Made by a program: the position numbers and the translations under genes
From: an uncultured Candidatus Peribacteria bacterium
Lineage (GTDB): Bacteria; Patescibacteriota; Gracilibacteria; UBA4473
Length of the DNA: 64,000 nucleotides
NCBI GenBank assembly: GCA_964344775.1
Contig: CAYFOO010000002.1
Location: forward strand, 15 to 64,014
Direction: 5' to 3'
The notes under the pieces: model-generated
The model's database searches: none
Told to the model about the DNA's origin: nothing
Seen by the model: the letters and a program-made list of their open reading frames with translations, nothing else
Part shown: piece after piece, positions 2,809 through 43,138 of the stretch
Numbering within the stretch: the first letter of the stretch is position 1
Layout of the letters: each line of letters opens with the position of its first letter

Positions 2809-4322
2809 TATGAAAGATATTGGCAATGGGTGGTGTGCACTTGAAAATTAGACAAATCGATATCGTCAAAAAGTGATTTTGATTTTAAGATTTCAATTTC
2901 TTCCTCCATTTTTCGTTTTTCAAAATTATAAATCAGGATTGTCTTGTGTCCGACAATGAAAATGAATTTTCCATCGTCAGAAACTTCCAGAGCGATATAT
3001 TCGGCTGCATGTCCGGGGTGATGATAGTTGAGAAAGTCAGCCATGTCTTCCGCCCCAATATCGTCCAAAAAGTTTTTTCCAATGTCGTGATGAAATTCCA
3101 AAGACATATTTTCGGCATTGATAAAAAAGAGTCGATTGGGTTTTCCAATGGTGCAGATGTAGATTTTTCCTCCGAAAGAAAAAACCTTGTGCGAAGTAAA
3201 CCGGTATCCTCGTGTATCAGAAAAACTTTCTTTTTTTGTGAGTCCTTTTTCGGTTATTTCAAATTTATCAATGGCTGCTGGACCGAAAAAAGTACGCCCT
3301 CCTTCTAGTTTGGCAAAGTTGTGGCAAGAAACAAAAACGCATTTTCCGTCCGGATGAAGTTCAAAGTGGGCCGGAGTGGAATAGGTCGTGTGATATAGAG
3401 TTTGTTGATTTTTTGATAAATTTATGGTGTTGATGTTGCCTTCTACTGGTTTTACCAAAAATTCTTCCCGGGCATCACAGATTTCTCGGAAAGATTTTTC
3501 CCCAAAAAGAGATTGGACGTACAATTCAAAATCAGGTCGGAGGTCATAAGTTCCATTGAATTCATCAATCGAAATTGATTTTTGGAAATTTTCTTCTGAA
3601 AAATTTTCACTCATTTGTTCACAAAACTCTTGGAACAGAATTCGAAATACATACTTGTATAATTGAGCCCGATCAAAAATCTCCCCTGTTTTTTGCACCT
3701 GAAAACAAACATCAGAAAAATCAGAATTGAGTAAAAGATTCCCATGTTTTTTGGTCACATGCGGGCATCCCCGTCCTCGAGGGTCAGTGAAAATTTCTTC
3801 AATTTTTTTCAGATCGAGGGTCGATCGATAATATTTCACTACACCTTTGTCTTCAGAAGAATTTTGGTGCAGGGCTGAAAAATAAAAATAGTTCGGATCT
3901 TCATCATCCGGGAAAATGGTGGAAACAAATTGCGTGATATTTTCATTATCTGGAATCGGAAGATCTTTTCCGGTAAGTACTTTTAATTTTTTATTGGCCG
4001 GATCTACCAAATAAAAGTACGGACTGTTTTCTACAAAGTTGAGAAAGGCACCATTTGAATTAACGCATAAAGAAGAATGTGGTTTGAATATTTGAGGGCA
4101 CTGATAGGAGGTGTTTTTTATTGTTTCTAAATTTTCTAGAGAATAAGAAGTGAGATAGGTGCTTTCTCCTTTTCGGAAATCCAAAAGCACAAAAGAAACC
4201 AAAAAATTTCGCTTATCTTTTCGGTGCCGGAGATAAAACATTAACGGGGCATCAAAATTCTCAGCCACCTTTTCAGGAGCTTTGAATTTTTCGGTATTGA
4301 TGTGTAGATCAAGTCCAAGCAT
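2808..4322 (-). CDS. 504-aa hypothetical protein, paralog B (His/Cys-rich, no family recognised)
   Basis: Long ORF. Shares conserved blocks with 4443..5957: MLxLDL, DPxxKKxKVxTGxDL, EDPxxFYF, CPHxTK, PAHFE, SxHNF, FFGPAxIDK, FSDxRGYRFTSH, GKPNRLF, ALEVSxxGxF, HCQY tail. Confidence 0.8.
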   Translation of the reverse strand: MLGLDLHINTEKFKAPEKVAENFDAPLMFYLRHRKDKRNFLVSFVLLDFRKGESTYLTSYSLENLETIKNTSYQCPQIFKPHSSLCVNSNGAFLNFVENSPYFYLVDPANKKLKVLTGKDLPIPDNENITQFVSTIFPDDEDPNYFYFSALHQNSSEDKGVVKYYRSTLDLKKIEEIFTDPRGRGCPHVTKKHGNLLLNSDFSDVCFQVQKTGEIFDRAQLYKYVFRILFQEFCEQMSENFSEENFQKSISIDEFNGTYDLRPDFELYVQSLFGEKSFREICDAREEFLVKPVEGNINTINLSKNQQTLYHTTYSTPAHFELHPDGKCVFVSCHNFAKLEGGRTFFGPAAIDKFEITEKGLTKKESFSDTRGYRFTSHKVFSFGGKIYICTIGKPNRLFFINAENMSLEFHHDIGKNFLDDIGAEDMADFLNYHHPGHAAEYIALEVSDDGKFIFIVGHKTILIYNFEKRKMEEEIEILKSKSLFDDIDLSNFQVHTTHCQYLS

Positions 4323-4442: not shown

Positions 4443-5957
4443 TCAAAAATATTGGCAATGAATGGACTTGCCGTAGCAATCCTGGAGTGCGGGGTGGTGA
4501 GACCTGATTGATTCATCAAGAAATGGGAGTTCGGCCACCACTTTTTTCTCCCGCATGCTATAAAAAACAGTCGAAAAGGTCCCAATCAAACAAATAAATT
4601 CACCGTTTTCCGAAACTTCCAACGCTACGTATTCCATCTGTTTTTGACGGAAATGGTTGAGGGCATCGGCTACTTTTTCTTCTGGAATATCTGACAAAAA
4701 ATCTGGACCAATATCGGTAAAATGATCCAGTTCCATCGTCTGAGCATCAATGATGAAAAGTCGATTTGGTTTCCCAATCGTGCAGACATACCCCTTGTCT
4801 TCAAATCGGAAAAATCGATGCGAGGTAAATCGATATCCTCGCGGATCAGAAAAGCACCCTTTGTGAATTAATTTTCCATCGGTTAATTGATATTTATCGA
4901 TCCCGGCCGGGCCGAAGAAAAATCGAGATTCAAAGGTGCAAAAATTATGAGAGGAAGTGTAAATACAATCTTCTTTTTCATCGATCTCGAAGTGGGCCGG
5001 AGCAGCAAAAGTGGTATCGATTGCTTGAAAATCTAAAGTTTCCAAGTCGAGCATGGTTATTTTCCCGGGTGCCAATTCAAACTGACATTCTGGGATCTGA
5101 TCACAGAGTTCTTTGAAGTTGCAATCGCCAAAGAAAGATTTGATATACAGATCAAAATCCGGATCAAGTTCGTACATTTGATTTTCACCGATAGTAAATG
5201 ATTTTTGATATGCTTCTTCTGCAAAATCTTTCCCAATCGCTTCACAATATTTCTGGTAAAGATGTCGGTAGGTCCGGTTCAGCAATTCTTTTTTTCGGAT
5301 AATTTTCCCATCTTTTTTGAGCTTAAAATCGATATTTTCAAAGTTAGAATTAAAAAGATAATGGTGATGACTTTTCGTCGTGTGCGGACATTTCCCTTTT
5401 TTTTCGGGGTGCGAAAAAATTTTTTCGATATTTTTTAACTGGGCATCGGTTTTATAATAATGAATCATAATTCCTTCCCCAGAACGATCCGTGTGAGCAC
5501 AAAAATAAAAATGATCGGGATCCTCCTCAATCCAATAAAAAGTAGAACCGAAACTCAAAATATCTTCTGCTTCTTCACAATTCAGATCTTCGCCCGTAAA
5601 AACTTTTATCTTTTTGGCTTCTGGATCCACAAAAAATAAAAATCGGCCGTTCTCGATAAAGTTGTAAAAACTATTTGTCCCTTTTATCCGGAGGGTGGAA
5701 TGAGGGCAGTGCGTGAGGGCTGTTTGGAGCCAGGATTCTCGATGATACGCATCCGTCTTTTTTTGGTTTTTTGGGGAAAAGCAAGAGTAGTAAGTCATTT
5801 CTTTTTTCTGAAAATCCATCACCACAAAGGTAGTAAAAAAGTTCCGCACGTCTTCTGTATGCCAGCAATAAAAAATTATGGGATTTGGAAATGCCTCACA
5901 AATAGCATCCTCCAATTTGAATTTTTCTTTGTGAATTTGTAAATCAAGTTCCAACAT
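4443..5957 (-). CDS. 504-aa hypothetical protein, paralog A
   Basis: Same length and same conserved blocks as 2808..4322. About 35-40% identity by eye. Confidence 0.8.
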   Translation of the reverse strand: MLELDLQIHKEKFKLEDAICEAFPNPIIFYCWHTEDVRNFFTTFVVMDFQKKEMTYYSCFSPKNQKKTDAYHRESWLQTALTHCPHSTLRIKGTNSFYNFIENGRFLFFVDPEAKKIKVFTGEDLNCEEAEDILSFGSTFYWIEEDPDHFYFCAHTDRSGEGIMIHYYKTDAQLKNIEKIFSHPEKKGKCPHTTKSHHHYLFNSNFENIDFKLKKDGKIIRKKELLNRTYRHLYQKYCEAIGKDFAEEAYQKSFTIGENQMYELDPDFDLYIKSFFGDCNFKELCDQIPECQFELAPGKITMLDLETLDFQAIDTTFAAPAHFEIDEKEDCIYTSSHNFCTFESRFFFGPAGIDKYQLTDGKLIHKGCFSDPRGYRFTSHRFFRFEDKGYVCTIGKPNRLFIIDAQTMELDHFTDIGPDFLSDIPEEKVADALNHFRQKQMEYVALEVSENGEFICLIGTFSTVFYSMREKKVVAELPFLDESIRSHHPALQDCYGKSIHCQYF

Positions 5958-12243: not shown

Positions 12244-12719
12244 CTTCGTTTTTTTTTATAGAGTTATAATGGGAACTATGGCGGACAGGTCAAGGGTTTT
12301 TGGAGAAGGAAGAAGATTTTTTTCACAAGTTCAGAAAGATTTAATACAAATTACGATACAATTTTTACACAAAAAGGCAAGCGAAAATAGCATAAAAAAG
12401 GGCTAAATTCTGTAACAAATAGATGATTATTTTCGTTTTAGACAACGATATTTTATGGCTGGTTCCCAAAGGTTGACTTTGGGGGCTCGGACGATAAAGT
12501 ATCTTGGATCTTTTACATCACGGAAAAACCCCATAAAACAAACAACGGGAAATGGATCAAAGAATGGGAAGAAACATGAATTGTAAAATTTCAATCAGTA
12601 GCTTATCGCTACGAATTAGACATTGAGTTAATCAATTTCTCTATAACAAACAGCCACTGGCTGTTAAAAATTTGAAAATTTTTTATTTCTTAACTTTTAA
12701 GACTATGGAATCCATTAAA

Positions 12720-15700
12720 ATGATTCGAAAAGGTCTTGCTTCGCTCACTTTAGTAGCATTTGGAGTAGCTTTCTTGGCAGCTCCTGCTCAAGCGCAGCTT
12801 GACTTCACGGATGCTATGGAAATTCCTTCTTGGGCTGAAGAAGCTATTGAAGAGCTTATGGACCAAGGAGTTATCAGTGGGAACGATGATGGATCTTTTG
12901 CTCCAAACCGACAATTGAACCGAGCAGAAGTTTCAAAAATTATCGTTTTGTCTTCAGGTGTTGAATTAGATGACACAGGAGGACCTCACTTCCCAGACGT
13001 TGACCCAGGTGCTTGGTACTACGACTACATTGAAACAATGTACAACCAAGGATGGATTAACGGGTATCCAGACGGTTACTTCCGACCTGCTGTTGGAATT
13101 AACCGAGCAGAAATTGCTAAAATGGTTGTAAACGCTTTCGAAATTGACCAAGACCTTTTTGGTGCTCCTCACTTCGATGATGTAGGAGAATCAGACTGGT
13201 TCTACGGTTATGTAGAAACTGCTTACAATAACGGACTTATGCGAGGGTACGGAGATGGTTCTTTTGGACCAGCTAACGCTGTGACTCGTGCTGAGACCAC
13301 AAAAATTGTTTACGACTCTCAATTGGTTGTATCAGAACCAGAAGGACCAGCAGAAGGAACTCTTGAGGTAGTACTCTCTGATGACACTCCTCGAGGAACC
13401 AATGTTCCTTACAACGCTACTTCTGTTCCGTACACGACTGTTGAACTTACCGCTTCTGACGACAGTGACATCGAAGTTTCTTCTTTGACTTTCACTCGTC
13501 TTGGACTTGGTGACAATGACGATTTTGACAATGTTTGGCTTGAAATTGACGGATTTAAAATCGGAAACGATAAATCCATCAATAATGACGACGTTGTTGA
13601 GCTTCGATTTAACCCACCTATCGTAGTGCCAGCTGGACAAACTCTTGTGGCTGATGTAGTGACTTCTGCGAAGTACACATCAAGCGACAAAAACATCGGG
13701 CATCACAATCGATTGGCTGTAGTTTCTGCTGACGATCTTGTATCTACTGCAGCAAACATTGTGGGAGACTTCCCAATTGAAGGGGAAGAAATGGAAGTAG
13801 CTGACTACGAAGTTTCTAGTGTTCAATTCTCAATTTTGGGATCAGACACTACTGTTGATGTAGGAGATAATTTTATTGAGGTTGGTAAATTCCGATTGCT
13901 CAATCAATCAACTTCTAACAAAGACATCGAACTTCGAGCCATTACTTTCAAAAACACTGGTACAGCAGAAATTCAAGACAATCTTGAAAACGTAGCGGTC
14001 TATGTTTCTGGAGAACAAGTTTCTGCTGAAACTATCGTTGACGGAGATTACCTTACTTTCCGACTTGATAACGGAGTAACAGGAGGTTACATCCTAGAAG
14101 ACGGAGACTCAAAAATCTTCTCTATCCGAGCAGACGTTGTTTCTGCTGAAGCTTCTGACACACTTACTTTGAAAATCGACAACTTCGAAGACATCGTGGG
14201 TGTAGAAATTGGAACTTCATTTGGAATCAAAGCTCTCTATGGTTCTGGATCTAGTGACTCAAGCTGTACTTCAGGAACTTCTAATGCAGAAGATGCTTGT
14301 GCTACTTTAAAAACTTACACCATTGATTCAGGAGATTTGAACATTTCTCGAGACCCTGCGTCTCTTGGAAATCAAACTTATGCTCCAGGATCTAACGATG
14401 TAGTGTTCTTGACTGCACGAGTTGTAGTTGATCAACCATTGATTGTTGACGGACTACGTGTAGATGTGGCTACAGGTACCGATCTTACTGATGCAGACAC
14501 ACTTGCAGAGTTGAATCTTAATTTCGACAACTTCCGATTTTATCTCAACGATCGATTGATCGATGCAGAAAATGATTTCACTGACGGAGGAACTATGTTG
14601 ACTTCTTACTTGAACTTCAACACTACCTTCGAAATTGCTGGAACATCTATCATCAAAATCGTTGGTAACATTGCTGACGCAGCTTCTGCTGGCGACACAG
14701 TAAAACTAGAAATTATCGGAAATACTAGTACAGTTGATGCTTTTGCTTCACCAGAGTATATTTCTACTGGAGACTCTGTTTCTGACAGCGAAGTACTTGG
14801 TTCTGCTCAAGGATCATTTGTAGAAGTACAAGCTTCTACGCTTACTATCACCAAAACAGATGGTCTCTCTGACGGAGACAAAATCGTAGCTGGTGTGGAT
14901 GATGTAGAATTCTTGAAATTCGTACTCGACAACAATGATTCAGGAGACGTAAACATTACTTCTGCTACTATTGCTGCAGACACTGCGGTAAACACTAACA
15001 ATGCTGGTGTTGGAGTTTCTGGAAGTACTCGAACGTACACCAACTTCACTATGGCTATGTTCGTTGATGGAACACAACAAGGATCTGCGAAAAACTTATC
15101 TTCTACTGGAGGTGCAACTTTCAACGATCTTTCTGTGATCATCCCATCTGCTGGGCAAAAAGAATTCACAGTTGTAGTTGATACGATCGAAGCTTCTGCT
15201 ACGGCTATCTCTACTACTCCATTGGCTGGACAAAACGAAACAGCTCTTGGTAGTACCGCTGATGTGGATGTTGCTTCTACTACAGGAATGACTGTAGGAG
15301 ATTTGATCATTTGGGATAACTCTGGAACAGACATTGTTCGAGCCATTACAGCGGTTACTGATTCTGACTCTCTTGCTTTGGACTCAGATCTAGGAGCAAA
15401 TATAGCTGATGGATCATCAGTATCTATCCGACATCAGTTGAAACTGACCGTTACTGGAATAGATGCAGACAATGTAGAAAACGGACAAACTGTAACGGTA
15501 AACGAAGGTGGAGCTGCTCTTTCTACATCAAATGTACTTGCTGGTGTGAACTTCGAACTTGTTAGTTCTGGTAGTCTTACTACCTCTATCGGATCTACTG
15601 TTTACTCAGACATCTTGGTTGCTAACCAATCAAATGTGGAAGTAATGAAAATCCGATTCAACGGAGCTGATGACGAAGTACAAATCAAAGACATCTACCT

Positions 15701-16916
15701 CGAAAACGATGTAGATGGAAATGGTACAGCAGACAACACTTCTGCTGGAGATCGTTTGAGTTTCAAGCTTTACAACGAAGCTGGGCAACTCGTTCAAGAA
15801 AAACAAATGACTTCTGGATCAATCCAATTCGAACTAGCAAACCAAGATCGAATCCGTGTGCCAAAAGATGATTCTACTTACGTAACGGTTAAGGTTGATG
15901 TACGAGACATCACAAAAGCAAATCAAACTGGACAACGACTCTTACTTGCTCTCGATGCAGACAATACAACGCACCGAGGACTCGAGGCAGTAACTGCTGC
16001 TACTGGATCTGACATTTCTGTTCCAAGTGCTTCTCCATATTGGGGAGATGCTGTAGGGCAAAACTTTGTTGCCTACCGAACAGAAATGGCCTTCAAGCAC
16101 GCTACCAACCAACCATCATTCTCTGATCCATCTAGTGCTTCTCAAGAACTTTACCGATTTACTGTGACAGCCGACTCAGGTCGACAAGCAGAACTCGGAC
16201 GAGTAACTCTTGACGCAGCACTCTCTGGAATGCAGTTTTCACCAACTGGAATCACTGGATCTGGAGTATTGGTTAACGCTGGTAACACAGCTATTGGATC
16301 AACTGCACTTACAGTTGATACAGTGGATGCTACTACCGTACTCGGAGTAGGAGACCTTATCGCAATCGGATCTGACACCATTACTACGGTTACTGCCGTA
16401 GGAAGTGCCACTTCTGTGACGGTTACAGCGCTTACCACAGCAATTGCTGATAATGAGGAATATACAGTGCTTGTAGACGCAAGTAACGTGGCTAACGTGC
16501 CATTGATCAAACAAGTAAAATCTGACGGAACAATCGATGATTCTGCCGTAGTACTAGACCGAATGGTTCTAAGTGCTGGTTCAGAAACAGCCGTACGAAT
16601 CCTCGGAGACTTTACTGGTCAACAGCTTGCTGCTGGAGAATCTCGAACTTACGCACTCTTCTTGCCTGCGACAGCCCAATCAGGATCTGAAGCAGACGAT
16701 GATGCAGTGTCTATATCTTTCGTTCGTGATACTTCATACGCAGCAGCCGCTGCCCGAGATACGGATGGAGACAATACGTATGACAACGGATCAGATCAAA
16801 CTGGTAACATGATCTGGTCAGACGAATCTTCAACCGCTCACTCTGACACTACGTCAGACTGGCTAAACGGATATCTGCTTGACGTTGACACTACTGCCAA
16901 AGTTAACGCAGACTAG
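12720..16916 (+). CDS. large SLH-domain surface (S-layer-type) protein
   Basis: Signal peptide MIRKGLASLTLVAFGVAFLAAPAQA. Three SLH-like repeats (WAEEAIEELMDQGVISG, WYYDYIETMYNQGWINGY, WFYGYVETAYNNGLMRGY), then more than 1100 aa that are T/S/D/V/G-rich. The ORF is open from 12672 (TTG); alternative ATG at 12705. Confidence 0.85.
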   Translation: MIRKGLASLTLVAFGVAFLAAPAQAQLDFTDAMEIPSWAEEAIEELMDQGVISGNDDGSFAPNRQLNRAEVSKIIVLSSGVELDDTGGPHFPDVDPGAWYYDYIETMYNQGWINGYPDGYFRPAVGINRAEIAKMVVNAFEIDQDLFGAPHFDDVGESDWFYGYVETAYNNGLMRGYGDGSFGPANAVTRAETTKIVYDSQLVVSEPEGPAEGTLEVVLSDDTPRGTNVPYNATSVPYTTVELTASDDSDIEVSSLTFTRLGLGDNDDFDNVWLEIDGFKIGNDKSINNDDVVELRFNPPIVVPAGQTLVADVVTSAKYTSSDKNIGHHNRLAVVSADDLVSTAANIVGDFPIEGEEMEVADYEVSSVQFSILGSDTTVDVGDNFIEVGKFRLLNQSTSNKDIELRAITFKNTGTAEIQDNLENVAVYVSGEQVSAETIVDGDYLTFRLDNGVTGGYILEDGDSKIFSIRADVVSAEASDTLTLKIDNFEDIVGVEIGTSFGIKALYGSGSSDSSCTSGTSNAEDACATLKTYTIDSGDLNISRDPASLGNQTYAPGSNDVVFLTARVVVDQPLIVDGLRVDVATGTDLTDADTLAELNLNFDNFRFYLNDRLIDAENDFTDGGTMLTSYLNFNTTFEIAGTSIIKIVGNIADAASAGDTVKLEIIGNTSTVDAFASPEYISTGDSVSDSEVLGSAQGSFVEVQASTLTITKTDGLSDGDKIVAGVDDVEFLKFVLDNNDSGDVNITSATIAADTAVNTNNAGVGVSGSTRTYTNFTMAMFVDGTQQGSAKNLSSTGGATFNDLSVIIPSAGQKEFTVVVDTIEASATAISTTPLAGQNETALGSTADVDVASTTGMTVGDLIIWDNSGTDIVRAITAVTDSDSLALDSDLGANIADGSSVSIRHQLKLTVTGIDADNVENGQTVTVNEGGAALSTSNVLAGVNFELVSSGSLTTSIGSTVYSDILVANQSNVEVMKIRFNGADDEVQIKDIYLENDVDGNGTADNTSAGDRLSFKLYNEAGQLVQEKQMTSGSIQFELANQDRIRVPKDDSTYVTVKVDVRDITKANQTGQRLLLALDADNTTHRGLEAVTAATGSDISVPSASPYWGDAVGQNFVAYRTEMAFKHATNQPSFSDPSSASQELYRFTVTADSGRQAELGRVTLDAALSGMQFSPTGITGSGVLVNAGNTAIGSTALTVDTVDATTVLGVGDLIAIGSDTITTVTAVGSATSVTVTALTTAIADNEEYTVLVDASNVANVPLIKQVKSDGTIDDSAVVLDRMVLSAGSETAVRILGDFTGQQLAAGESRTYALFLPATAQSGSEADDDAVSISFVRDTSYAAAAARDTDGDNTYDNGSDQTGNMIWSDESSTAHSDTTSDWLNGYLLDVDTTAKVNAD

Positions 16917-24958: not shown

Positions 24959-25542
24959 TGAAAAAATATGAGCGACTTTTTCTCGCTATTCCAATCCCAA
25001 AGGAATTTGAAAAAAAATTGCTGCGTTTTCAGATCCAACATTCGGAACTGGAGAAAATAGAAAATATCCGTTGGACACCTGTGCAGAACCTACATGTAAC
25101 TTTATTTTTTTTGGGAGCAGTAGATTCTGGTGTTATTCCAGATTTAAAAAAAGAATTGTGTGAAATTTTTTCTTCTGCAAAACCATTTGAATTGAAATTA
25201 GAAAAAATCTGTTTTCAGCCAGCTCAAAATCCAAAAATGATCTGGGCTAGATTTTTTGAAAACGAAAATTTTACCAAACTTTCACGTCAAGTTGCTGATG
25301 TGTACCAGCGATTTCAAAAAGTATCAGAAACAAATTTTAAAAAACAAATTCCACACATAACGCTGGCTCGAATGAAAAATTTTTCTGGAGGAGAATTTTA
25401 TAAAAAACCCGGAAGGGAGGAAAAGATTTTGATATCAAGAGCAGAGCTTTGGCGGTCTGAGTTGCAAAAAGGAGGATCAAAATATACTTCTATTGCCACA
25501 TTTCATTTTGGCTTGTATACTTTTTCTAGAAACAAATGCTAA
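24958..25542 (+). CDS. thpR: RNA 2',3'-cyclic phosphodiesterase / 2'-5' RNA ligase family
   Basis: Two HxT motifs: HVTLFFLG and HITLAR. Confidence 0.8.
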   Translation: MKKYERLFLAIPIPKEFEKKLLRFQIQHSELEKIENIRWTPVQNLHVTLFFLGAVDSGVIPDLKKELCEIFSSAKPFELKLEKICFQPAQNPKMIWARFFENENFTKLSRQVADVYQRFQKVSETNFKKQIPHITLARMKNFSGGEFYKKPGREEKILISRAELWRSELQKGGSKYTSIATFHFGLYTFSRNKC

Positions 25543-26192
25543 TGCGAAAATTAAAATTGATTTCAGTTTTCTTGAGTATCTGTGGAGGACTCTTTTTTTT
25601 CGTAGTTCATGCTTCAGAAACCCAAACACAATTGAGCCTAGAAATCTTCCCGGGAGCATTGCGAGTAAATATTGTTGATGAGAATTATGTGCCTGTACCA
25701 GAGCCTTATGTTTTATTTAGTGAAATAGATTTTAGTTTTATGAACCAAGAGACGAATGCCATATTGGGGACACAAGCTCAGAACATTTGGGTTGAAAATC
25801 CTAGCAGTGATCCAACCTGGGAAGTGACTATTGCAGCGACAAAAGGGCCCACTGCTCTCTGGGTGGATGACGAAGGGAATGATCCATGGGATGGTACTTG
25901 TCCTTCTGTTTGTGTAGATTACAACAGCGGGACAGGAATTGGGCAGCTTACTATAGATCCGACAGATGGTTATATTTATCGAGAAGATTATGGAGATGTA
26001 GAAGGAATTGTGTTAGGGCCGAAAGCCTCCTTCATAGAGGGATCGGTAAATGACATCACCCTTTTTCGATCTACTTCTGGAGAGCCATACCATGCTTATA
26101 GTTTGACTGGGGTGAAACTCAAACAAACCATTCCCGGAGGGCAGCGAGCCAATAGAAGTTATACACTCGATATGACTTTGACAATTGCGTAG
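25536..26192 (+). CDS. secreted WxL-like surface protein 1
   Basis: Signal peptide. Shares LSLEIFPGALRVNIVD.., TWEVTIAATKGPTALW and the C-terminal YTLDMTLTIA with 26747 and 31376. Confidence 0.6.
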   Translation: MLMRKLKLISVFLSICGGLFFFVVHASETQTQLSLEIFPGALRVNIVDENYVPVPEPYVLFSEIDFSFMNQETNAILGTQAQNIWVENPSSDPTWEVTIAATKGPTALWVDDEGNDPWDGTCPSVCVDYNSGTGIGQLTIDPTDGYIYREDYGDVEGIVLGPKASFIEGSVNDITLFRSTSGEPYHAYSLTGVKLKQTIPGGQRANRSYTLDMTLTIA

Positions 26193-26449
26193 GGAAGGAA
26201 GTTGGAATGTGGAAGTTAGAAGTTAGAACGTAGAATGGTTTTTTTGAGTTATTTTGTCAAACGATGATATTTGTGCGGTGAATCTATAAAATTGTGTAAA
26301 AAATGTGGAAAACTGCTTTGTGGACAATTGTCTTATTCTTCGCGTAAATAAGCTAATTGTGTAAAAAAATAATGCTGTTTTTTGAATATATAAATACCAC
26401 AAAATTTTTTCAGCGAAAGCGAAAATTGAGGAAAAAATGTGAAAAAGGC

Positions 26450-26479
26450 TTGCATTGAAAATTGGTCTTTCAGTATAAT
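26450..26479 (+). promoter_or_regulatory. candidate sigma70-type promoter (TTGCAT-18-TATAAT)
   Basis: ttgcat at 26450-55, tataat at 26474-79. Confidence 0.4.
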
Positions 26480-26643
26480 ATGAGACGATGAAAAATATTG
26501 AGAAGGAGCTCAGCTTTCTAAAAACTCTATGCGTGCGGGGCATGGGGCAAGTCAGTTTGGCTTTTTCTTTTTGTTTGTCAGTTCTTTCGGGCGTGTTCTT
26601 ACGCCCCCCGATCGGCTCTACACGGGCGGACGAGAAAAAAGTT

Positions 26644-26672
26644 TTGACTTTCTTTTGTAATTATGTTACAAT
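26644..26672 (+). promoter_or_regulatory. candidate promoter (TTGACT-17-TACAAT) for the surface-protein gene at 26747
   Basis: ttgact at 26644-49, tacaat at 26667-72, about 75 nt upstream of the ATG. Confidence 0.55.
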
Positions 26673-26746
26673 ACTCGGAAAGCCAAAAATATGGACGTCC
26701 AAAAGAGCTTTCAAACTATTCTTTATTTCTTAACTTTTTTTTAAAA

Positions 26747-27502
26747 ATGAAAAAAGTAATTGCTATTGCGTTGGCACTTGGACTATTCTCAGGTGTATAC
26801 GCTGCAGACAACACCGACGTAACTATTACTGTTAACGAAGGTGAACTTACTATTGACATCACAGATGCTGATGGAAACACTGTAGCAACTCCAGGAGTTA
26901 CAATGAGTGCCGTAACTTCAGCGTTCTCTGATGCTACTTCTACTGGAACACTTGGGGAAGGAGCTGGGGGAACAAACGAACGGATTACAGCTTACAATCC
27001 ACGAACAAATGGTGCTTTCACTGTTTCTATCCAATCAAGCGACACTGAGTGGCTTGGTGCTACTGATGTAGGAGACAGCCCATGTATTGCTGGTCAAACA
27101 GAAGTTGTACTTGATGACTGTCGATACAACATGGGATTTGCTAATGGGGGACTTGGTACTGGAGCTACAGCTGCTGGTGTAGCTACTTTGACTGTAGATC
27201 CTTCAGGAGGAACAATGGAACAAGCGACTCCAGATCCAGACCAAACTCCAAATCCATGGAGTGGTTTGACTGCACGTGGAACAGCTGGTGCTCCAGATAA
27301 CGGACTTTCTCTTGGTGCTTCTACCGTTTTTGGAACTACAGCAGAGATTATCACTCTTTTTACTTCTACAGATGTAGTTGATGAAGGGAACGACCAAGCA
27401 ATTCTTACACTTACTGGTGTAGGGCTTACTCAAAATGTTCCAGCTGGACAAGCAGCTGATACAGGAGGTTACAGTATTAACCTTCTTCTAACAATTGCTT
27501 AA
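26747..27502 (+). CDS. secreted WxL-like surface protein 2
   Basis: Signal peptide MKKVIAIALALGLFSGVYA. DVTITVNEGELTIDITDADGNTVATPGV. C-terminal YSINLLLTIA. ATG at 26747. Confidence 0.7.
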   Translation: MKKVIAIALALGLFSGVYAADNTDVTITVNEGELTIDITDADGNTVATPGVTMSAVTSAFSDATSTGTLGEGAGGTNERITAYNPRTNGAFTVSIQSSDTEWLGATDVGDSPCIAGQTEVVLDDCRYNMGFANGGLGTGATAAGVATLTVDPSGGTMEQATPDPDQTPNPWSGLTARGTAGAPDNGLSLGASTVFGTTAEIITLFTSTDVVDEGNDQAILTLTGVGLTQNVPAGQAADTGGYSINLLLTIA

Positions 27503-27544
27503 TTCTAAGCAAAACTAGTTAGAAATTTACCCGCAAAAAAACGT

Positions 27545-27580
27545 CCCCCTCACCAAATCTTGGTGAGGGGGATTTGTTTA
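27545..27580 (+). terminator. terminator hairpin
   Basis: ccccctcacc-aaatctt-ggtgaggggg followed by atttgttt. Confidence 0.6.
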
Positions 27581-27660
27581 GGCTGACGAGATTAAACGGA
27601 GCTCGATTCCTGGAATTTTTCTATTTTAAACGTTCTTGCTTAAAAACAAAAGATTTTTAG

Positions 27661-27861
27661 TCATTCTGTAATTTCGCTCCACAAATCTACAAACAACGGA
27701 TTTCTTTCTTTTATTAATCCCAATTTTTCTTCTCGAGACATGTTTTTTAGCTGCTTTTCATAAATAATGGCAGACATTGGTGTTGTTCCTACTTCGTAAT
27801 AAAGTAATTTATTGAGTTTATATTTTTTGGTAAATTCACAGCCTTTCCCTTGTTTATCGTG
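27661..27861 (-). pseudogene. GIY-YIG-family gene remnant (C-terminal 66 codons only)
   Basis: rc reads HDKQGKGCEFTKKYKLNKLLYYEVGTTPMSAIIYEKQLKNMSREEKLGLIKERNPLFVDLWSEITE*. In-frame TAG and TAA codons lie immediately upstream. The N-terminal GIY-YIG part is missing and a hairpin gtcatcccggcttgaccgggatc sits in its place. Confidence 0.6.
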
Positions 27862-27924
27862 CTACTTTTACCAGATCCCGGTCAAGCCGGGATGACCAAG
27901 AAATAAAAAATTATTGAAAAGCAA

Positions 27925-27955
27925 AATAAAAACCCCACACCTGAAGGCATGGGGT
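27925..27955 (-). terminator. terminator after the 168-aa DUF916-like gene
   Basis: On the minus strand: ccccatgccttcaggtgtgggg followed by tttttatttt. Confidence 0.65.
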
Positions 27956-27998
27956 TTGTTTATAAGCCCTTCCGAGCAAAATAAGAGAATCAATCAGT

Positions 27999-28505
27999 TT
28001 ATTGGAACTCCGGGGGGAGAGCGGCTGGATTACCATATACTCGTACCGCCATTCGGGTGCTGAGTCGGACAAACCAGTATCCCCATCGTTTTCGGAGTGT
28101 TTTTTTTGCCACTACGATACCTCCGATCATATCTTCTGGTGCTACATCTTTTGGCACAGTCATTTTGAAAGGAATGACTACACTTTCTCCTGGTTTGAGG
28201 CGAACTTTGCTTTGAGCTAGTTGTACCCAAGATCCGAGACCAGTCATTTCAGCTGTTTCCAGCTTGAGGCCAAATCCTCCAATAGCTGAAGGAAAATAAT
28301 CTGCTGCGTAAATAGCTGCGTCAACTGGAGTAGTGTATCTATTTGTTACGGTAATAGAATCTTGGATACTATCCCCTGGCTGAAGATTGTAATTGAACCA
28401 GCCAGTGCTGTCTACTGGATTAGTTGGGCGTCCTCCGAGGTAAGCGAAGGTAGAGCTGACAAAAAGCATGCTCATGGTCATAAGAAGTACAAATAATTTT
28501 TTCAT
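27999..28505 (-). CDS. short DUF916-like secreted protein (N-terminal domain only)
   Basis: Signal peptide. GWFNYNLQPGDSIQDSITVTN..GGFGLKLETAEMTGLGSWVQL..LKPGESVVIPFKMTVPKD..IGGIVV is parallel to the N-terminal halves of 28926 and 30125. Confidence 0.7.
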   Translation of the reverse strand: MKKLFVLLMTMSMLFVSSTFAYLGGRPTNPVDSTGWFNYNLQPGDSIQDSITVTNRYTTPVDAAIYAADYFPSAIGGFGLKLETAEMTGLGSWVQLAQSKVRLKPGESVVIPFKMTVPKDVAPEDMIGGIVVAKKTLRKRWGYWFVRLSTRMAVRVYGNPAALPPEFQ

Positions 28506-28925
28506 GGTTAGAAAAGGATTAAAAAATAAATTTTAAAAAAATAAAAAAGTGATTGATATTTCTTTTTATTTTTTTGTTCTTGGAAGGCCTTTTTCCAAAT
28601 TTTGTAGTCCCGAGCTCGAATATTTTCGAGGGGAACCAAAGCTTGTGTACTGTTTATATACAAAATGGACACAAATGTCAAATCTTTTTTTGTTAATACT
28701 TGGTAAAAACCTTGTTTTTTGGCTTAAGAAAGAGGAAAAAATTGGTTGAAAAAAATCTAGTATCTTCAACCAAAAACCCCTCTATCCTATTTTTTCGACA
28801 AGTATCTCCCCCTGTCAGGGGAGAAGAAGCGGGAATAAAAAAACTTTTGCTTTTTTCCCTCTGGGGCCCTAAACTTGCTTTTGCACTTTTTGTGTATTTT
28901 CTTGTTTCTTTAACCAAAATTAAAA

Positions 28926-30074
28926 ATGAAAATGAAAAATCTGTTTCGTAGTGGGGTCGTATTATTGGGGATGTTTACTTTATTAGCTTCCCAGGTGTTT
29001 GCTTATGGAGGGGTAGGAGGAGCCCCACTCGTGTCGCTCGATCCGACCAAGAAAGGCTGGTTTGTCTATCAGCTTGGTCCAGGAGAGAGCTATGATGATA
29101 CATTTGTGGTGAGAAATACTTCAGATAAACCTTGGATTGCCGTGGTGTACCCGGCTGATCAATCTCCGGCTTCTGGAGGAGGATTTGCCCTGAAACAAAA
29201 AGGGGCAGAAATGACAGGAGTTGGAAGTTGGACCAAAATGGAAGGAGCAGATGAAAATGGGATTGTAGAAGTGTTATTGGAACCAGGAGAACAAAAACTT
29301 ATTCCTTTTACCATCACTATTCCCAATGATGCCGAAGTAGGAGAAATGGCGGGAGCTGTTATGGTAGAAAAAAAAGACCCGGCAACAGCAGAAAGTCCAA
29401 AGTTTAATTCTGGACGGGCAGGGGTGGTATTGAGCATGCGTACAGGGACTCGGATATACAATACCGTACCAGGGAATATTAACGAAGAATTAGTTGTGGT
29501 ATCGGGAGAGTTTCTTAAAAAGGGAGAATTAAATGGGATGACGCAGTATTTGTTATCTTATGATATCGAAAATAAAGGTTCAATTTCTACCAACGCAAAA
29601 ATGGTGACTACCGCAAAAAATGCTTGGCGGGGAGATGAGGTTTTTTATGATACCGCCGAGGAACCGCCAGAGTTTATAGTTTCTCCAGATACTACTTTTG
29701 ACTACAATGGACGAATTTTGATGCCAAAATTTGGAAAAATAGAAGTCGCTTCAAAAGTGTTTATGGTGGACCGAAAAGGAGAAGAAACACAAATTGCTGA
29801 AGAATATTTCTCTGTCATTATAATTCCTTGGAAAGAGGTTGGATTGGGGGTATTGGTGATTGCCCTTATTGTTCTTTTCTTCATTTGGAGAAAAAGAAAG
29901 TATAGTGGCAAGGGGTGGAATGGTTATACGATAAAAACCGGAGATACTATTACGGCATTAGCAGAACAACACGGGATTGATTGGAAATTTTTGGCCAAGG
30001 TAAATCGGATCAAAACTCCATATATTTTAAATAAAGGGGATAAAATTCTTGTCCCACCAAAAAAGAAAAAATAG
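28926..30074 (+). CDS. DUF916/DUF3324-like cell-surface protein with TM anchor and C-terminal LysM
   Basis: Signal peptide. GWFVYQLGPGESYDDTFVVRN..GGGFALKQKGAEMTGVGSW..LEPGEQKLIPFTITIPND..GEMAGAVMV. TM VGLGVLVIALIVLFFIW, then RKRKYSGK, then LysM (YTIKTGDTITALAEQHGIDWKFLAKVNRI..GDKILVP). Confidence 0.75.
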   Translation: MKMKNLFRSGVVLLGMFTLLASQVFAYGGVGGAPLVSLDPTKKGWFVYQLGPGESYDDTFVVRNTSDKPWIAVVYPADQSPASGGGFALKQKGAEMTGVGSWTKMEGADENGIVEVLLEPGEQKLIPFTITIPNDAEVGEMAGAVMVEKKDPATAESPKFNSGRAGVVLSMRTGTRIYNTVPGNINEELVVVSGEFLKKGELNGMTQYLLSYDIENKGSISTNAKMVTTAKNAWRGDEVFYDTAEEPPEFIVSPDTTFDYNGRILMPKFGKIEVASKVFMVDRKGEETQIAEEYFSVIIIPWKEVGLGVLVIALIVLFFIWRKRKYSGKGWNGYTIKTGDTITALAEQHGIDWKFLAKVNRIKTPYILNKGDKILVPPKKKK

Positions 30075-30124
30075 GCCCTTTGGTAAAACGTTTTTAGTTT
30101 TATCCTTGGACTACAAAGATAAAA

Positions 30125-31249
30125 ATGAAAAAAAATTATTTATTATTCAGTGTAGCAGTGGTTTCTTTTGGCTTTCTTTTTTCCACCGCTTTTGCTATTG
30201 GGGGGGTTGGTGGTGCACCATTGAAGCCTTTGGACCCCAACCATAGAGGATGGTTTATGTACGAATTGGGACCAGGAGCAACTTACAAGGATGTTTTGGT
30301 AGTAAAAAATACCACCAAAAAAGATTGGTTTGTGGATGTGTATCCGGCCGACCAGACCCCTTCTTCTAGTGGAGGGTTTGCCCTGAAACAAAAAGTTGAA
30401 GAAATGACCAGGATGGGAACTTGGATAAAACTTGCAAAAGATCGAGTGTTTGTGAAATCCGGAGGAAGCGTACAAGTTCCTTTTACCATTACTATTCCCA
30501 GAAATGTGGACGTAGGAGAAACGGCTGGGGGGATATTGATGGAAAAAGTTGACCCAAAAAGTCTTCAAAAATCAAGACAAGCCACTCAAGCAGGAGTCCG
30601 GATTTCACTTCGTACGGGGGTGAGAGTTTATAATATTGTTTCCGGAGATATCAAGGAAGAATTAGCAATGACGAAATCTTTTCTCAGGCCTAAAAAAGCT
30701 AGTGATTGGCAAAATGGGCCAATTTATTTCTTCTCACAATCTGTAGAAAATTTGGGAACGATCTCTACCACAGCAAAGTTTATAATCAAAGTGAAAGAAT
30801 TGTGGCAAGATGAAGTTATTTTTGATTCCAGTGAGGAACCAGGAACCTTTTTGATTTCTCCTCAGGATACATTTGATTATAACCAGGACTTACAGCTTCC
30901 GAAATTTGGAAAATTTGAAGTGACTTCAGAAGTTTCCATGATTGATCGGCAGGATGTAGAGAGTTTCATTAATTCAAAAACACATCAAATTATAGTGCTG
31001 CCACTGAAAGAAATAGCCGTGGGAGTAGCGATTATTTTTGTTGTTACTATTTTTATTATTTTGCACCATCGAAAATATAGTGGAAAAGGGTGGGTCGGTT
31101 ATACGGTCAAAGCAAATGATACCATTGCCAGCATTGCTGCTGGGCATGGGATTGATTGGGAGTTTTTGGCTAAGGTAAATCGAATAAAATCTCCTTATAT
31201 ACTTGAAAAGGGTGGTAAAATAGTTGTTCCTCCAAAAAAGAAAAAATAA
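30125..31249 (+). CDS. DUF916/DUF3324-like cell-surface protein with TM anchor and C-terminal LysM (paralog)
   Basis: Same architecture as 28926. The tail after the TM helix is about 75% identical by eye. Confidence 0.75.
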   Translation: MKKNYLLFSVAVVSFGFLFSTAFAIGGVGGAPLKPLDPNHRGWFMYELGPGATYKDVLVVKNTTKKDWFVDVYPADQTPSSSGGFALKQKVEEMTRMGTWIKLAKDRVFVKSGGSVQVPFTITIPRNVDVGETAGGILMEKVDPKSLQKSRQATQAGVRISLRTGVRVYNIVSGDIKEELAMTKSFLRPKKASDWQNGPIYFFSQSVENLGTISTTAKFIIKVKELWQDEVIFDSSEEPGTFLISPQDTFDYNQDLQLPKFGKFEVTSEVSMIDRQDVESFINSKTHQIIVLPLKEIAVGVAIIFVVTIFIILHHRKYSGKGWVGYTVKANDTIASIAAGHGIDWEFLAKVNRIKSPYILEKGGKIVVPPKKKK

Positions 31250-31375
31250 CAAAAAACAATAAAATATTTTTTTATCATCCGAAAAATACAGAAAAAGATT
31301 TGTGTTCGAAAAAATGAGGTGTTAAAATTCAGTTGTTCAACATAGTTTCCTTTATCCTTTTAAAATTATTGAAAA

Positions 31376-32062
31376 ATGAAAAACTTCAAAAAGTTACTGG
31401 CCGCGGCTTCTGTTACTACTCTTTCATTGGGGCTTCTGGCTGGTGTTTATGCTAGCGATCAGACAGAGCTATCAATTACAGTTAATGAAGGAATCCTTAC
31501 GGTTTCCATTGTAGATAATGATGGAAACGTGGTAGCGAGTCCGACTGTTCCTTTTGGTGCTGTAACGACTCAGTTTATTGATCAGGAAACAACTGCTTCT
31601 CTTGGGACGCCGACGGATACATTGGCTTCTGTGACACAGCAAATTCTTTTGGCAAATCCAACCGATACGGAGGCTTGGACCGTGGCTATGGCGGCTACAG
31701 GTGGGCCGACAGCAGAATGGAGTGAGGGGACATTTACCATGGACTTCAATGGTGCAGCTGGGGCAAGTGAAGGGAGATTAACAGTAAACCCACAACACGC
31801 TGATGTAAGAATCCGACAAGCAGAATTTGATCCGACAACAGCAGCTATTACTGGTGAAAACACCAATACTACTGGGATTAGTGCTGGTACGGAAGATACT
31901 TATGATCAAGCAGGAGGGACAAACAGTATTACCCTCTTTAGCTCTACTACCGGAGATGATTATAATGGATATCTGATTCGGGGGATTGAGCTTCGACAAA
32001 ACGTTCCAGCACAACAGGAAGCAGGGAACTACACATTGGATATGACTATCACCGCTACCTAA
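31376..32062 (+). CDS. secreted WxL-like surface protein 3
   Basis: Signal peptide. ELSITVNEGILTVSIVDNDGNVVASPTV, EAWTVAMAATGGPTAEW. C-terminal GNYTLDMTITAT. Confidence 0.7.
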   Translation: MKNFKKLLAAASVTTLSLGLLAGVYASDQTELSITVNEGILTVSIVDNDGNVVASPTVPFGAVTTQFIDQETTASLGTPTDTLASVTQQILLANPTDTEAWTVAMAATGGPTAEWSEGTFTMDFNGAAGASEGRLTVNPQHADVRIRQAEFDPTTAAITGENTNTTGISAGTEDTYDQAGGTNSITLFSSTTGDDYNGYLIRGIELRQNVPAQQEAGNYTLDMTITAT

Positions 32063-32091
32063 GCAGGATAAATTAAAGAAAAAATTGAAAA

Positions 32092-32117
32092 GTCTCGCAT
32101 AGCGGGGCTTTTTTTTA
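32092..32117 (+). terminator. terminator hairpin after the surface locus
   Basis: gtctcgc-ata-gcggggc followed by tttttttt. Confidence 0.6.
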
Positions 32118-35530: not shown

Positions 35531-36703
35531 CTAGCTTTTTTGGGGCACACATTTTTTTTGTGTTTGCTCAAAGACACGATGGCAAATGGCTCGAATTTGT
35601 TTTTTTGTAACTATTTCAAAAACTAATTCATAATTTATTTTTTGCTCAGCCAAAGTCGTTTTATCCACGGTTGTATTAGCAATAGATTTTCTCGTTTTTC
35701 TTATTTGATTAAGCCCCTCGAGCACTTTTTTTGCAATTGTTGAACGAATATATAGTGCACATTGGCGGCCAAGAGAAGAATCAATTGAAAAAGAGATGGT
35801 ATTTTTCTTTTCATATTTATGCTTATGAACTGCATCTACAGAATCTGTTACATAACCTGCTACTTCGGGGAATAAATCCAAGGAGGTCCCCAAAGCAATA
35901 TTTTCCAAATACTCTTCGGGAGAAGCATCTTTATCAAGTATTTTTTCTGGAAAAAAATGTTGTGGTTCTTCCATCATCCATCTTCCGACTCGAGCAAGAC
36001 TCTTTTTTTCTAGTTCTGGAAGATCGGTGAAACTATCAGGATTAGGATTTCTTCCACTCAAAACCAGAGCTCTGTTCAAGGTATCAATAATTGTTTTTTT
36101 GCCCCAGTAGGGTCGGAATTGAAAAAGTGCTTCATAATGTGGAGCGGTGGTAGTTCTTTTTTCAGGGGGAGTTTGTTGCCATTCGTATTGATGTAGACAG
36201 AATCTTCCTAGCTCTGCAGCTGGGCCAATAAATTTGTCTAAATCAAATTCTCGTACATCCTCTAGATTTATAGGATCATGCACATGTTTTTTCACTCGTT
36301 TATTCCAGATTTCTCCAACATTGCTATCAAAAACATTAAGTTCCCAGATTTTTATTTGTTCTGGTGAAAGCCAGTCTTTTAATTTAGTTAAAAAATATCT
36401 GTCCAAATGTACTTTTAAAACACGAACCGCATAGGCATTACTTTGATCAAAACTTAACCCGAGTTTTAATCGAAGAAAGAAGCGTTGTAAATTTCTATCA
36501 GAGGTTGAGGGCAAATTTTCTGGTAATAAATTATTTTCTTTTTGTCTTTCAATAATTTTATCGTCCAAACAGACAGGGCTGGATAAAAATACTCCTACAT
36601 CTCTATTTGTTTTTTCCTGTGCTGCAACTACACGATCATCCTTCCAAGTGAGAGAAGGAAGTTTTTCTGGAGGTCGCAGATCTAAATCAAGCTGCTCAGT
36701 CAT
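35531..36703 (-). CDS. hypothetical protein (390 aa)
   Basis: Long ORF, no family recognised. Confidence 0.6.
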   Translation of the reverse strand: MTEQLDLDLRPPEKLPSLTWKDDRVVAAQEKTNRDVGVFLSSPVCLDDKIIERQKENNLLPENLPSTSDRNLQRFFLRLKLGLSFDQSNAYAVRVLKVHLDRYFLTKLKDWLSPEQIKIWELNVFDSNVGEIWNKRVKKHVHDPINLEDVREFDLDKFIGPAAELGRFCLHQYEWQQTPPEKRTTTAPHYEALFQFRPYWGKKTIIDTLNRALVLSGRNPNPDSFTDLPELEKKSLARVGRWMMEEPQHFFPEKILDKDASPEEYLENIALGTSLDLFPEVAGYVTDSVDAVHKHKYEKKNTISFSIDSSLGRQCALYIRSTIAKKVLEGLNQIRKTRKSIANTTVDKTTLAEQKINYELVFEIVTKKQIRAICHRVFEQTQKKCVPQKS

Positions 36704-39763: not shown

Positions 39764-39911
39764 CGGCCAGCTCTGCCCACTGAATAAGTGGCAGGAGCGG
39801 TGATCTTTTACATGTCGTTTGTGTTTAAAATTAGTAAAATAGTAAAGTAAAGACTTCTAAATATGTTTTCTGTGATTTACTCACTGAAGCATAATCAAGT
39901 CTGAGTATTGA

Positions 39912-42915
<3,004 letters not shown>

Positions 42916-43020
42916 TTTCAATCATTCAAGCTTGATTTTGTTTCGGTGGGTAATTTTCAGAAAACAGTTTAGTTTTTACAGACACAAACGATGTAGATAA
43001 CGCTCAACCAAAGAAGGTTT

Positions 43021-43138
43021 GGCGTTGGCATTTATAGCGAAGGGGGTACACCTGATTCCATTCCGAACTCAGCCGTTAAGCCCTTCAGCACTGATGATAC
43101 TTGGGGTTACCCTGGGAAAGTAGGACGATGCCAACGTT
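43021..43138 (+). rRNA. rrf: 5S rRNA
   Basis: Helix I gttggca/tgccaac. ccgaactcag..gttaag and gggaaagtagg core. Confidence 0.85.

Follow-up and report, generated by a model that had tools for sequence, protein, structure and literature searches.

A probable diverged WxL/WxLIP-type cell-surface gene cluster in a Candidatus Peribacteria genome

Introduction

Does a cluster of six genes for secreted proteins in an uncultured bacterium of the Candidate Phyla Radiation (CPR) represent a distant version of the WxL/WxLIP cell-surface system of Firmicutes? The genes lie at positions 25536-32062 of a 64-kb stretch of DNA (64,000 nucleotides, hereafter called the window) from a Candidatus Peribacteria bacterium (GenBank assembly GCA_964344775.1, contig CAYFOO010000002.1). 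An initial annotation, made from the sequence alone, had described the locus as a WxL/DUF916-like cell-surface complex in a CPR-like genome, with degenerate WxL proteins as the small components and DUF916/DUF3324-like proteins as their partners. Our analysis indicates that this reading was essentially right. The locus is probably a diverged CPR version of the Firmicute WxL/WxLIP cell-surface cluster.

Work on host attachment and surface display in CPR bacteria (Patescibacteria) has so far centred on type IV pili. WxL clusters are known from the Lactobacillales and Bacillales, with the csc clusters of Lactiplantibacillus plantarum, loci A-C of Enterococcus faecium and the elr operon of Enterococcus faecalis as examples. 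The canonical clusters each comprise a small WxL protein, a large WxL protein and a WxLIP protein (DUF916-DUF3324-transmembrane helix), and structures have been solved (PDB 9i1y and 9i25). According to Pfam-based counts, more than 91% of WxL sequences belong to Firmicutes (PMC9772566). Our literature search found no paper linking WxL to Patescibacteria, and both the CPR distribution of a WxL-type system and its extra modules (LysM, LytR_C) appear undescribed.

Two families of secreted proteins

All six open reading frames (ORFs) were found at exactly the positions given in the initial annotation, and all six proteins have a signal-peptide-like N-terminus. They belong to two paralogous families, A (A1, A2 and A3) and B (B0, B1 and B2), whose coordinates are listed in Table 1. 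Hidden Markov models (HMMs) built from relatives of each family recovered exactly three A and three B genes in the window and nothing further, with E-values of about 1e-39 to 1e-57 for the A proteins and 1e-47 to 1e-161 for the B proteins. Judged from these sequences, the similarity within both families is far beyond chance.

The B proteins as WxLIP homologues

B1 and B2 share 51% identity. We compared the three B proteins with PF06030 (WxLIP_PGBD, formerly DUF916), which has a gathering score of 27.3 bits; B0 (27.7 bits) and B2 (30.8 bits) passed this score, and B1 (27.1 bits) fell short by 0.2 bits. A search for B homologues yielded 28 relatives, and all 27 members that were aligned matched PF06030 (best E 4.2e-15), in agreement with the DUF916-like N-terminal domain that had been proposed for the three proteins.

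For comparison at the level of profiles, canonical WxL clusters were drawn from annotated plasmids of Paenibacillus, Companilactobacillus, Bacillus thuringiensis and B. mycoides. The B family aligned with the four canonical Firmicute WxLIP proteins at an hhalign probability of 98.6% (E 1.3e-15) over 221 columns, which begin in the first domain and extend into the second. In the AlphaFold2 model of B2 (predicted local distance difference test, pLDDT, 87.1), beta-sandwiches occupy residues 28-142 and 163-291, followed by a helix (294-317) and a LysM fold (324-368). When this model was compared with the PDB by Foldseek, 9i25_C and 9i1y ranked first (E 3.7e-15, 278 columns, target-normalised TM-score 0.60). 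The alignment to the Enterococcus faecium WxLIP (EfmWxLIP1) spans both immunoglobulin-like (Ig-like) domains, and 9i25_C bears the title 'WxLIP from Enterococcus faecium locus A bound to long WxL'. Moreover, the sequence profile of the B family reached 9i25_C at E 0.0012, over chain residues 37-230. These results show that the B proteins are WxLIP homologues.

The short inverted copy noted in the initial annotation is B0, which lies on the minus strand and aligns only to the first ~165 residues of B1 and B2, with 43% identity. A short form of comparable kind, EfmWxLIP2 (181 aa), occurs in E. faecium (PMC10599100). In the closest Peribacteria contig, the corresponding position is also occupied by a short inverted B0-like copy (L011 1734-2384, minus strand). 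We considered whether B0 is a pseudogene remnant, and rejected this because its ORF is intact and the short inverted copy is kept in the closest relative.

LysM domain and predicted membrane topology of the B proteins

In B1 and B2 the transmembrane (TM) helix is followed by a complete LysM domain (PF01476 positions 1-43 of 43; E 3.5e-10 and 1.4e-9), which the initial annotation did not mention. LysM is kept in 22 of the 27 B relatives. A C-terminal hydrophobic segment was found in 24 of the 27 and is lacking in B0. In all members whose helix was detectable, the 12 residues after it carry a net charge of +2 to +5; the net charge before the helix is mostly zero or negative across the family. 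Because the proteins have a cleavable signal peptide and one further helix, the LysM domain is predicted to be cytoplasmic. This predicted location would be unusual for a peptidoglycan-binding module; Escherichia coli Kbp/YgaU provides a precedent for a cytoplasmic LysM.

Variants from Parcubacteria and Moraniibacteriota have a longer architecture: PGBD, second domain, TM helix, LysM, acidic linker, another TM helix and LytR_C. Two-TM homologues of this kind, 650-790 aa long, are encoded at L019 9929-12199 and L026 9968-11941; their acidic linker is of low complexity, and LytR_C was identified as PF13399 (E 8e-13). Here LysM stands between the two helices, and the outer flanks (PGBD and LytR_C) are of extracytoplasmic type.

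An opposite orientation has to be weighed, in which the B proteins are LysM-anchored wall proteins with their C-terminus outside, LysM sits on the cell's own or the host's peptidoglycan, and the helix does not act as a stop-transfer anchor in the membrane of the cell itself. LysM domains typically bind peptidoglycan outside the cytoplasm, and the retention of LysM in most B members would suit such a role. Hassan et al. argued that the TM helix of WxLIP is not in the bacterial membrane (PMC10599100), and a published suggestion has it inserted in a host membrane. However, a cleavable N-terminal signal peptide with a single hydrophobic helix predicts a C-terminus inside the cell; the charge distribution around the helix points the same way, and so do the Parcubacteria variants, with LysM enclosed between two TM helices and flanks of extracytoplasmic type. 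We therefore consider the outside orientation most improbable. Both features, a LysM domain that follows the TM helix and the variants with two TM helices and LytR_C, bear on the question how the helix of WxLIP proteins is placed in the membrane.

The A proteins and their C-terminal domain

A1, A2 and A3 share 30-37% pairwise identity. The N-terminal, central and C-terminal blocks that had been pointed out in them were confirmed, as was the absence of 'AAT.GPTA' from A2. Scans of A1-A3 against Pfam and NCBIfam gave no meaningful match, and among database names no source annotates relatives of A or B. A word-indexed homologue search with A3 retrieved two relatives only, so that an exhaustive profile search was needed. 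Among 1.84 billion representative proteins, this profile search recovered an A-domain family of 688 clusters (defined at 50% identity) at E<=0.001, and of 550 clusters at E<=1e-10.

The A domain is ~190 aa long, and 149 of the 154 best hits have no residue behind it. Sixty-three of the 154 are small proteins that consist of a signal peptide and the domain; 91 have greater lengths, of up to 3401 aa, and their passenger regions contain IG_AIR9, Big_13, PKD-like, Laminin_G_3, Calx-beta and Peptidase_S8 modules. The WxL domain, too, is always C-terminal and occurs in small and large proteins (PMC9772566), so that the A domain, found alone or behind passengers, behaves as published for WxL. The AlphaFold2 model of A3 is all-beta (pLDDT 90.4; predicted TM-score 0.83).

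One of the large proteins, a 1457-aa protein with a C-terminal A domain (L019 3957-8330), contains an apparently exact internal duplication of ~560 aa starting 'LSQFSPTDYFYNAS...'. This duplication is either a very recent event or an assembly artefact.

Gene linkage and distribution in CPR genomes

We scanned one genome per species with an alignment of the 16 closer B sequences and obtained 17 loci with B relatives. Fifteen of them are labelled as CPR lineages, and two (L015 and L025) have no phylum label. The lineages represented, all by metagenome-assembled genomes, are Candidatus Peribacteria, Moraniibacteriota, the Parcubacteria group, the Patescibacteria group and Dojkabacteria; since every named relative falls in one of these, the description of the genome as CPR-like is supported. 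The relatives from Candidatus Peribacteria are 66, 48 and 43% identical to B2, with a further partial match at 49%.

Together with contigs recovered through individual proteins, the scan provided 19 non-redundant loci. An A-domain gene adjoins the B gene in 18 of these, the exception being a 6-kb contig fragment. A large A-domain protein is also encoded in 13 of the 19, usually in the order large A, one or two small A, B, which is the layout of canonical WxL clusters. Hassan, Chaudhuri and Williamson (2023, PMC10599100) defined a WxL cluster as one with two or more WxL proteins and one or more WxLIP. The window, with three B and three A genes within 6.5 kb, falls under this definition only provided that the A domain counts as homologous to WxL.

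At three related loci (L003, L004 and L012), a gene for ADP-forming acetyl-CoA synthetase, the same as in the window, follows one B and one A gene. It thus appears that the locus in the window arose from an ancestral B-A pair by local expansion. On the closest Peribacteria contig (L011 211-6134), three full-length B proteins are encoded, along with the short inverted B0-like copy and, as far as the contig extends, only one A gene. This make-up differs from that of the window and implies rapid change in the number of A and B copies among close relatives.

Evidence for and against homology of the A domain with WxL

We compared a profile of 154 A domains with one of 62 PF13731-positive small WxL proteins, from which the signal peptides had been removed. 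The two aligned with an hhalign probability of 95.3% (E 2.2e-8, score 57.1); the 158 aligned columns begin with the first strand and include the last residue. The control comparisons scored far lower: 12.4 for the reversed alignment, 11.3 +/- 2.1 (maximum 19.2) for column shuffles, 15.5 +/- 3.2 (maximum 25.1) for shuffles of eight-column blocks, and 14-17 for decoy beta-sandwich families. When the input was split into subsets, the full-length alignment was obtained in every one, with scores of 35-63. On the A side, the probability was 96% for small A proteins only, 84% for large A proteins only and 91% for the paralogues of the window plus two relatives; on the WxL side, it was 93% for Lactobacillales-type and 64% for Bacillus-type sequences only.

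The alignment also brings conserved positions together. In the A family, the motif I-R-V-x-N(100%)...W(94%)-[TS]-[L52/V34]-x-I-A-A-T is in register with L-x-[VI]-x-D(95%)...G-[Y61/W38]-x-[VI]-x-V-x-A of the canonical set. The last strand has a conserved Tyr in 99% of the A family and 95% of canonical WxL proteins. Many members of the A family have another W-D-L, which lies outside the canonical position. From the comparison of profiles, which is its only basis, we regard homology of the A domain and WxL as likely, a shade more so than the reading of the locus as a whole.

Several results weigh against a WxL-type reading of the locus. PF13731 (WxL) did not match A1-A3 at E<=1 or any of 59 small A-family members even at E<=10, and an HMM built from the 62 canonical small WxL proteins found no match in the window. 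In the last strand, a Leu (70% of the A family) aligns with the second Trp/Tyr of the canonical set, which means that the 'dual WxL' signature is half lost. Foldseek comparison of the A3 model with the PDB gave no match at E<=0.001; the solved WxL chain, 9i25_A, was absent among the 50 matches listed, which were mostly weak matches to chaperone-usher pilins and to CanA with TM-scores <=0.34. For the partner proteins, PF11797 (WxLIP_HBD/DUF3324) matched none of the 27 B-family members at E<=1, and the middle domain alone reached only a marginal hhalign score of 19.9 against the canonical HBD of four sequences (shuffles 10.6 +/- 2.4, maximum 17.3). Furthermore, a scan with the A-domain HMM showed that no large A-domain protein is encoded in the window, another point that the initial annotation had passed over, and a cytoplasmic LysM, as predicted here, has no place in the canonical WxLIP model.

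Two claims of the initial annotation consequently stand in part. Since the profile score of the middle domain by itself is marginal, the label 'DUF3324-like' rests on position and fold, both of which agree, and not on sequence. The small proteins as degenerate WxL proteins have the long profile alignment, well above its controls, in their favour and the PF13731 result against them, and the A3 Foldseek comparison does not confirm them. Among the three Pfam models named in the initial annotation, PF06030 matched the B proteins, and PF13731 and PF11797 gave no match.

Published models indicate that small and long WxL domains differ in topology (PMC9772566). In searches of PDB sequences, profiles of the A domain and of canonical small WxL proteins gave noise only, and 9i25_A was found only with the C-terminus of a Bacillus large WxL protein, at E 0.03.

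The A domain could instead be an independent C-terminal anchor with a DUF916-type partner, its likeness to WxL being a convergence of beta-rich domains of similar size. The lack of any Pfam or HMM match to WxL, the absence of 9i25_A among the listed A3 matches, the lost second Trp and the drop in probability with the Bacillus-type subset would all fit such an origin. It accounts less well for an alignment that runs collinearly along the whole domain and keeps the two conserved motifs in register, that scores 57 against a null maximum of 25, and that is stable in every split. In addition, the partner B is a clear WxLIP homologue and the gene order is that of canonical clusters. An anchor not derived from WxL thus seems unlikely, but it is the strongest of the alternatives.

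The Foldseek matches raise a different possibility: a surface fibre may be built from the small A proteins, with B as a PapD-type chaperone that donates a strand and hands subunits on for polymerisation, in a monoderm counterpart of chaperone-usher pili. After WxLIP, the matches of B2 include the two-domain pilus chaperones CfaA, PapD, Caf1M and CsuC (E 3e-9 to 3e-7, target-normalised TM-score up to 0.58). The listed matches of A3 are largely the pilins CfaB, PapE, Caf1, CsuA/B and FimA, the top-ranked ones with E 2e-3 to 0.1 and a probability of up to 0.92. The presence of several small A paralogues per locus and the predicted strand insertion from WxLIP into WxL (PMC10599100) would also suit a fibre. 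Yet the pilin matches of A3 combine low TM-scores (<=0.34) with a high root-mean-square deviation, no usher-like or sortase gene was seen among the genes of the locus, and B is membrane-anchored rather than soluble. Moreover, the A domain is mostly the C-terminal tag of large proteins, which suits an anchor better than a subunit of a polymer. We consider a fibre of this kind very unlikely, and retain a WxL-type anchor as the preferred reading of the A domain.

Two further groups of sequences were compared with the A profile: a single Clavibacter 'hypothetical' neighbour of a DUF916 gene, and the C-termini of large WxL proteins. Neither had a significant link to it, and both aligned with the canonical WxL profile. 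The Clavibacter protein (208 aa, L006 5119-5745, on plasmid pCCh of Clavibacter phaseoli) lies beside a DUF916 gene and has no Pfam match; it aligned with the canonical WxL profile at an hhalign probability of 82% over 112 columns. Hence WxL-like partners invisible to Pfam occur in Actinomycetota too.

Proposed mechanism and significance

On a WxL-type reading, the signal peptides of B1 and B2 would be removed, and the two Ig-like domains would face outward with the C-terminal TM helix in the cell's own membrane. A1-A3 would be secreted, and each would consist of the ~190-aa domain remotely homologous to WxL and nothing else. By analogy with the solved E. faecium complex (9i25) and a published model that predicts strand insertion from WxLIP into WxL (PMC10599100), we propose that the first domain of B binds the A domain by a beta-strand that completes the A sandwich. 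Such non-covalent binding to B would keep A-domain proteins on the surface.

Elsewhere in the CPR, the A domain would serve as the anchor of large proteins with Ig-like, laminin-G, Calx-beta and subtilisin-type modules, and large A-domain proteins are probably also encoded elsewhere in this genome. The system might therefore act as a general display platform for adhesins and enzymes, on which small A proteins may be scaffold or adaptor subunits. The platform may also have a role in the attachment of the bacterium to its host, as the initial annotation had suggested.

A more far-reaching interpretation gives this domain family a central function. The 688 clusters of WxL-like C-terminal domains that Pfam and NCBIfam leave unrecognised would then be the main tether of the CPR for large adhesins and proteases; B would couple the platform to the cytoplasm via its intracellular LysM, for example by sensing or binding cell-wall precursors; and small A proteins might polymerise on B by strand exchange, similar to a chaperone-pilin system of a monoderm, in contact between episymbiont and host. 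We regard this combination as quite unlikely.

If the WxL-type reading holds, several CPR lineages share a deep, unannotated branch of a system that has been regarded as nearly exclusive to Firmicutes. The A-domain HMM would then be a simple marker by which CPR genomes can be searched for candidate adhesins and enzymes displayed at the surface, such as proteins of 500-3400 aa with Ig-like, laminin-G, Calx-beta or subtilisin modules.

Comparison with known surface systems

Like the WxL clusters of Lactobacillales and Bacillales, the CPR loci combine a partner protein (signal peptide, PF06030 domain, second Ig-like domain, TM helix) with secreted proteins of one ~190-aa all-beta domain, and this domain is also C-terminal in large multidomain surface proteins. 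The genes are tightly linked, in related CPR loci in the order large, small, small, WxLIP, and B0 is a short PGBD-only paralogue comparable to EfmWxLIP2. The first W-x-[LV] strand motif and the terminal strand with its Tyr are shared as well. In contrast to the WxL clusters, the A domain is below the detection of PF13731 and NCBIfam, its second Trp is replaced by Leu or Met, and the second domain of B is not recognised by PF11797. LysM has been added after the TM helix of B, with a second TM helix and LytR_C in Parcubacteria and Moraniibacteriota. Finally, the window encodes no LPxTG protein and has no large WxL gene, and the hosts are CPR bacteria instead of Firmicutes.

Chaperone-usher pili, with their PapD-like chaperones and pilins, resemble the locus in having a partner of two Ig-like domains and a small subunit similar to an incomplete sandwich. 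Their folds are the secondary Foldseek matches, and strand complementation is the binding mode proposed here. They differ in that the locus has no usher and the cell no outer membrane, B is anchored in the membrane, the A matches are weak (TM-score <=0.34), and a sequence relationship was not found.

The SLH, LysM, GW and CWB2 modules of monoderms likewise retain proteins on the surface without sortase, and the A domain, as WxL, is C-terminal. Unlike these modules, the A domain has no repeat structure and is dependent on, or in any case always found with, a membrane partner of its own, B. LysM is here found on that partner, apparently on the cytoplasmic side, and not on the displayed protein. 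The window also encodes a 1414-aa protein with three S-layer homology (SLH) repeats (12672-16916, plus strand; E 1.6e-37), likely an S-layer or wall-anchored protein. With this second surface-display system, the organism would have several. The SLH protein, together with a FemAB-family enzyme encoded in the window, is consistent with a peptidoglycan-containing monoderm envelope.

Locus layout and neighbouring genes

The features of the locus are given in Table 1. The ORF of A2 opens at an upstream ATG (26663), and the start that provides a signal peptide is at 26747; a promoter-like site at 26644-26672 is compatible with the latter. Terminator-like hairpins after A2, B0 and A3, all found by pattern matching only, suggest that B1, B2 and A3 form one transcription unit.

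Table 1. Coordinates of the genes, protein domains and hairpins of the locus (positions in the window).
Feature	Position	Strand	Description
A1	25536-26192	+	218 aa; signal peptide and one A domain (WxL-like); A-domain HMM E 1.3e-56, residues 33-219
A2	26747-27502	+	251 aa; most diverged small secreted A copy, with inserts and without the 'AAT.GPTA' block; A-domain HMM E 3e-39
Hairpin 3' of A2	27543-27573		terminator-like, bidirectional, 13-14 bp stem; pattern match only
Hairpin downstream of B0	27930-27957	-	terminator-like; pattern match only
B0	27999-28505	-	168 aa; short, secreted; first WxLIP domain only (PGBD/DUF916), without second domain, TM helix or LysM; B HMM E 2e-47, positions 12-174
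B1	28926-30074	+	382 aa; WxLIP-like: signal peptide, PGBD, second beta-sandwich, TM helix (aa 302-320), LysM (aa 334-377)
B1 LysM domain	29925-30056	+	aa 334-377; Pfam E 3.5e-10
B2	30125-31249	+	374 aa; full-length WxLIP-like protein
B2 first domain	30245-30544	+	PGBD/DUF916, aa 41-140; Pfam and AlphaFold2 model
B2 second beta-sandwich	30611-30997	+	aa 163-291, at the DUF3324/HBD position; AlphaFold2 strands
B2 TM helix	31004-31075	+	aa 294-317; helix in model; hydrophobic segment followed by net charge +3
B2 LysM domain	31100-31231	+	aa 326-369, predicted cytoplasmic side; PF01476, model positions 1-43 of 43
A3	31376-32062	+	228 aa; small secreted A-domain protein; A-domain HMM E 9e-55; last gene of the likely B1-B2-A3 operon
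Hairpin 3' of A3	32087-32113	+	terminator-like, 12 bp stem and T run; pattern match only

The flanking genes are housekeeping genes, encoding transaldolase, glucose-6-phosphate isomerase, LigT, ADP-forming acetyl-CoA synthetase and RuvC. We rejected a mobile-element or horizontal-transfer context on account of these flanks and of the order B, A, acetyl-CoA synthetase, which is common to other Peribacteria contigs.

Elsewhere in the window, 23S and 5S rRNA genes are present at 39910-43136. The 16S rRNA gene is absent from the whole 64 kb, so that the rRNA operon appears to be unlinked. A 390-aa ORF without Pfam match (35531-36703, minus strand) lies between a serine acetyltransferase-like gene and a FemAB-family gene. 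Two adjacent ORFs on the minus strand (2808-4322 and 4443-5957), also without Pfam match, are both 504 aa long, and their equal length suggests that they may be tandem paralogues.

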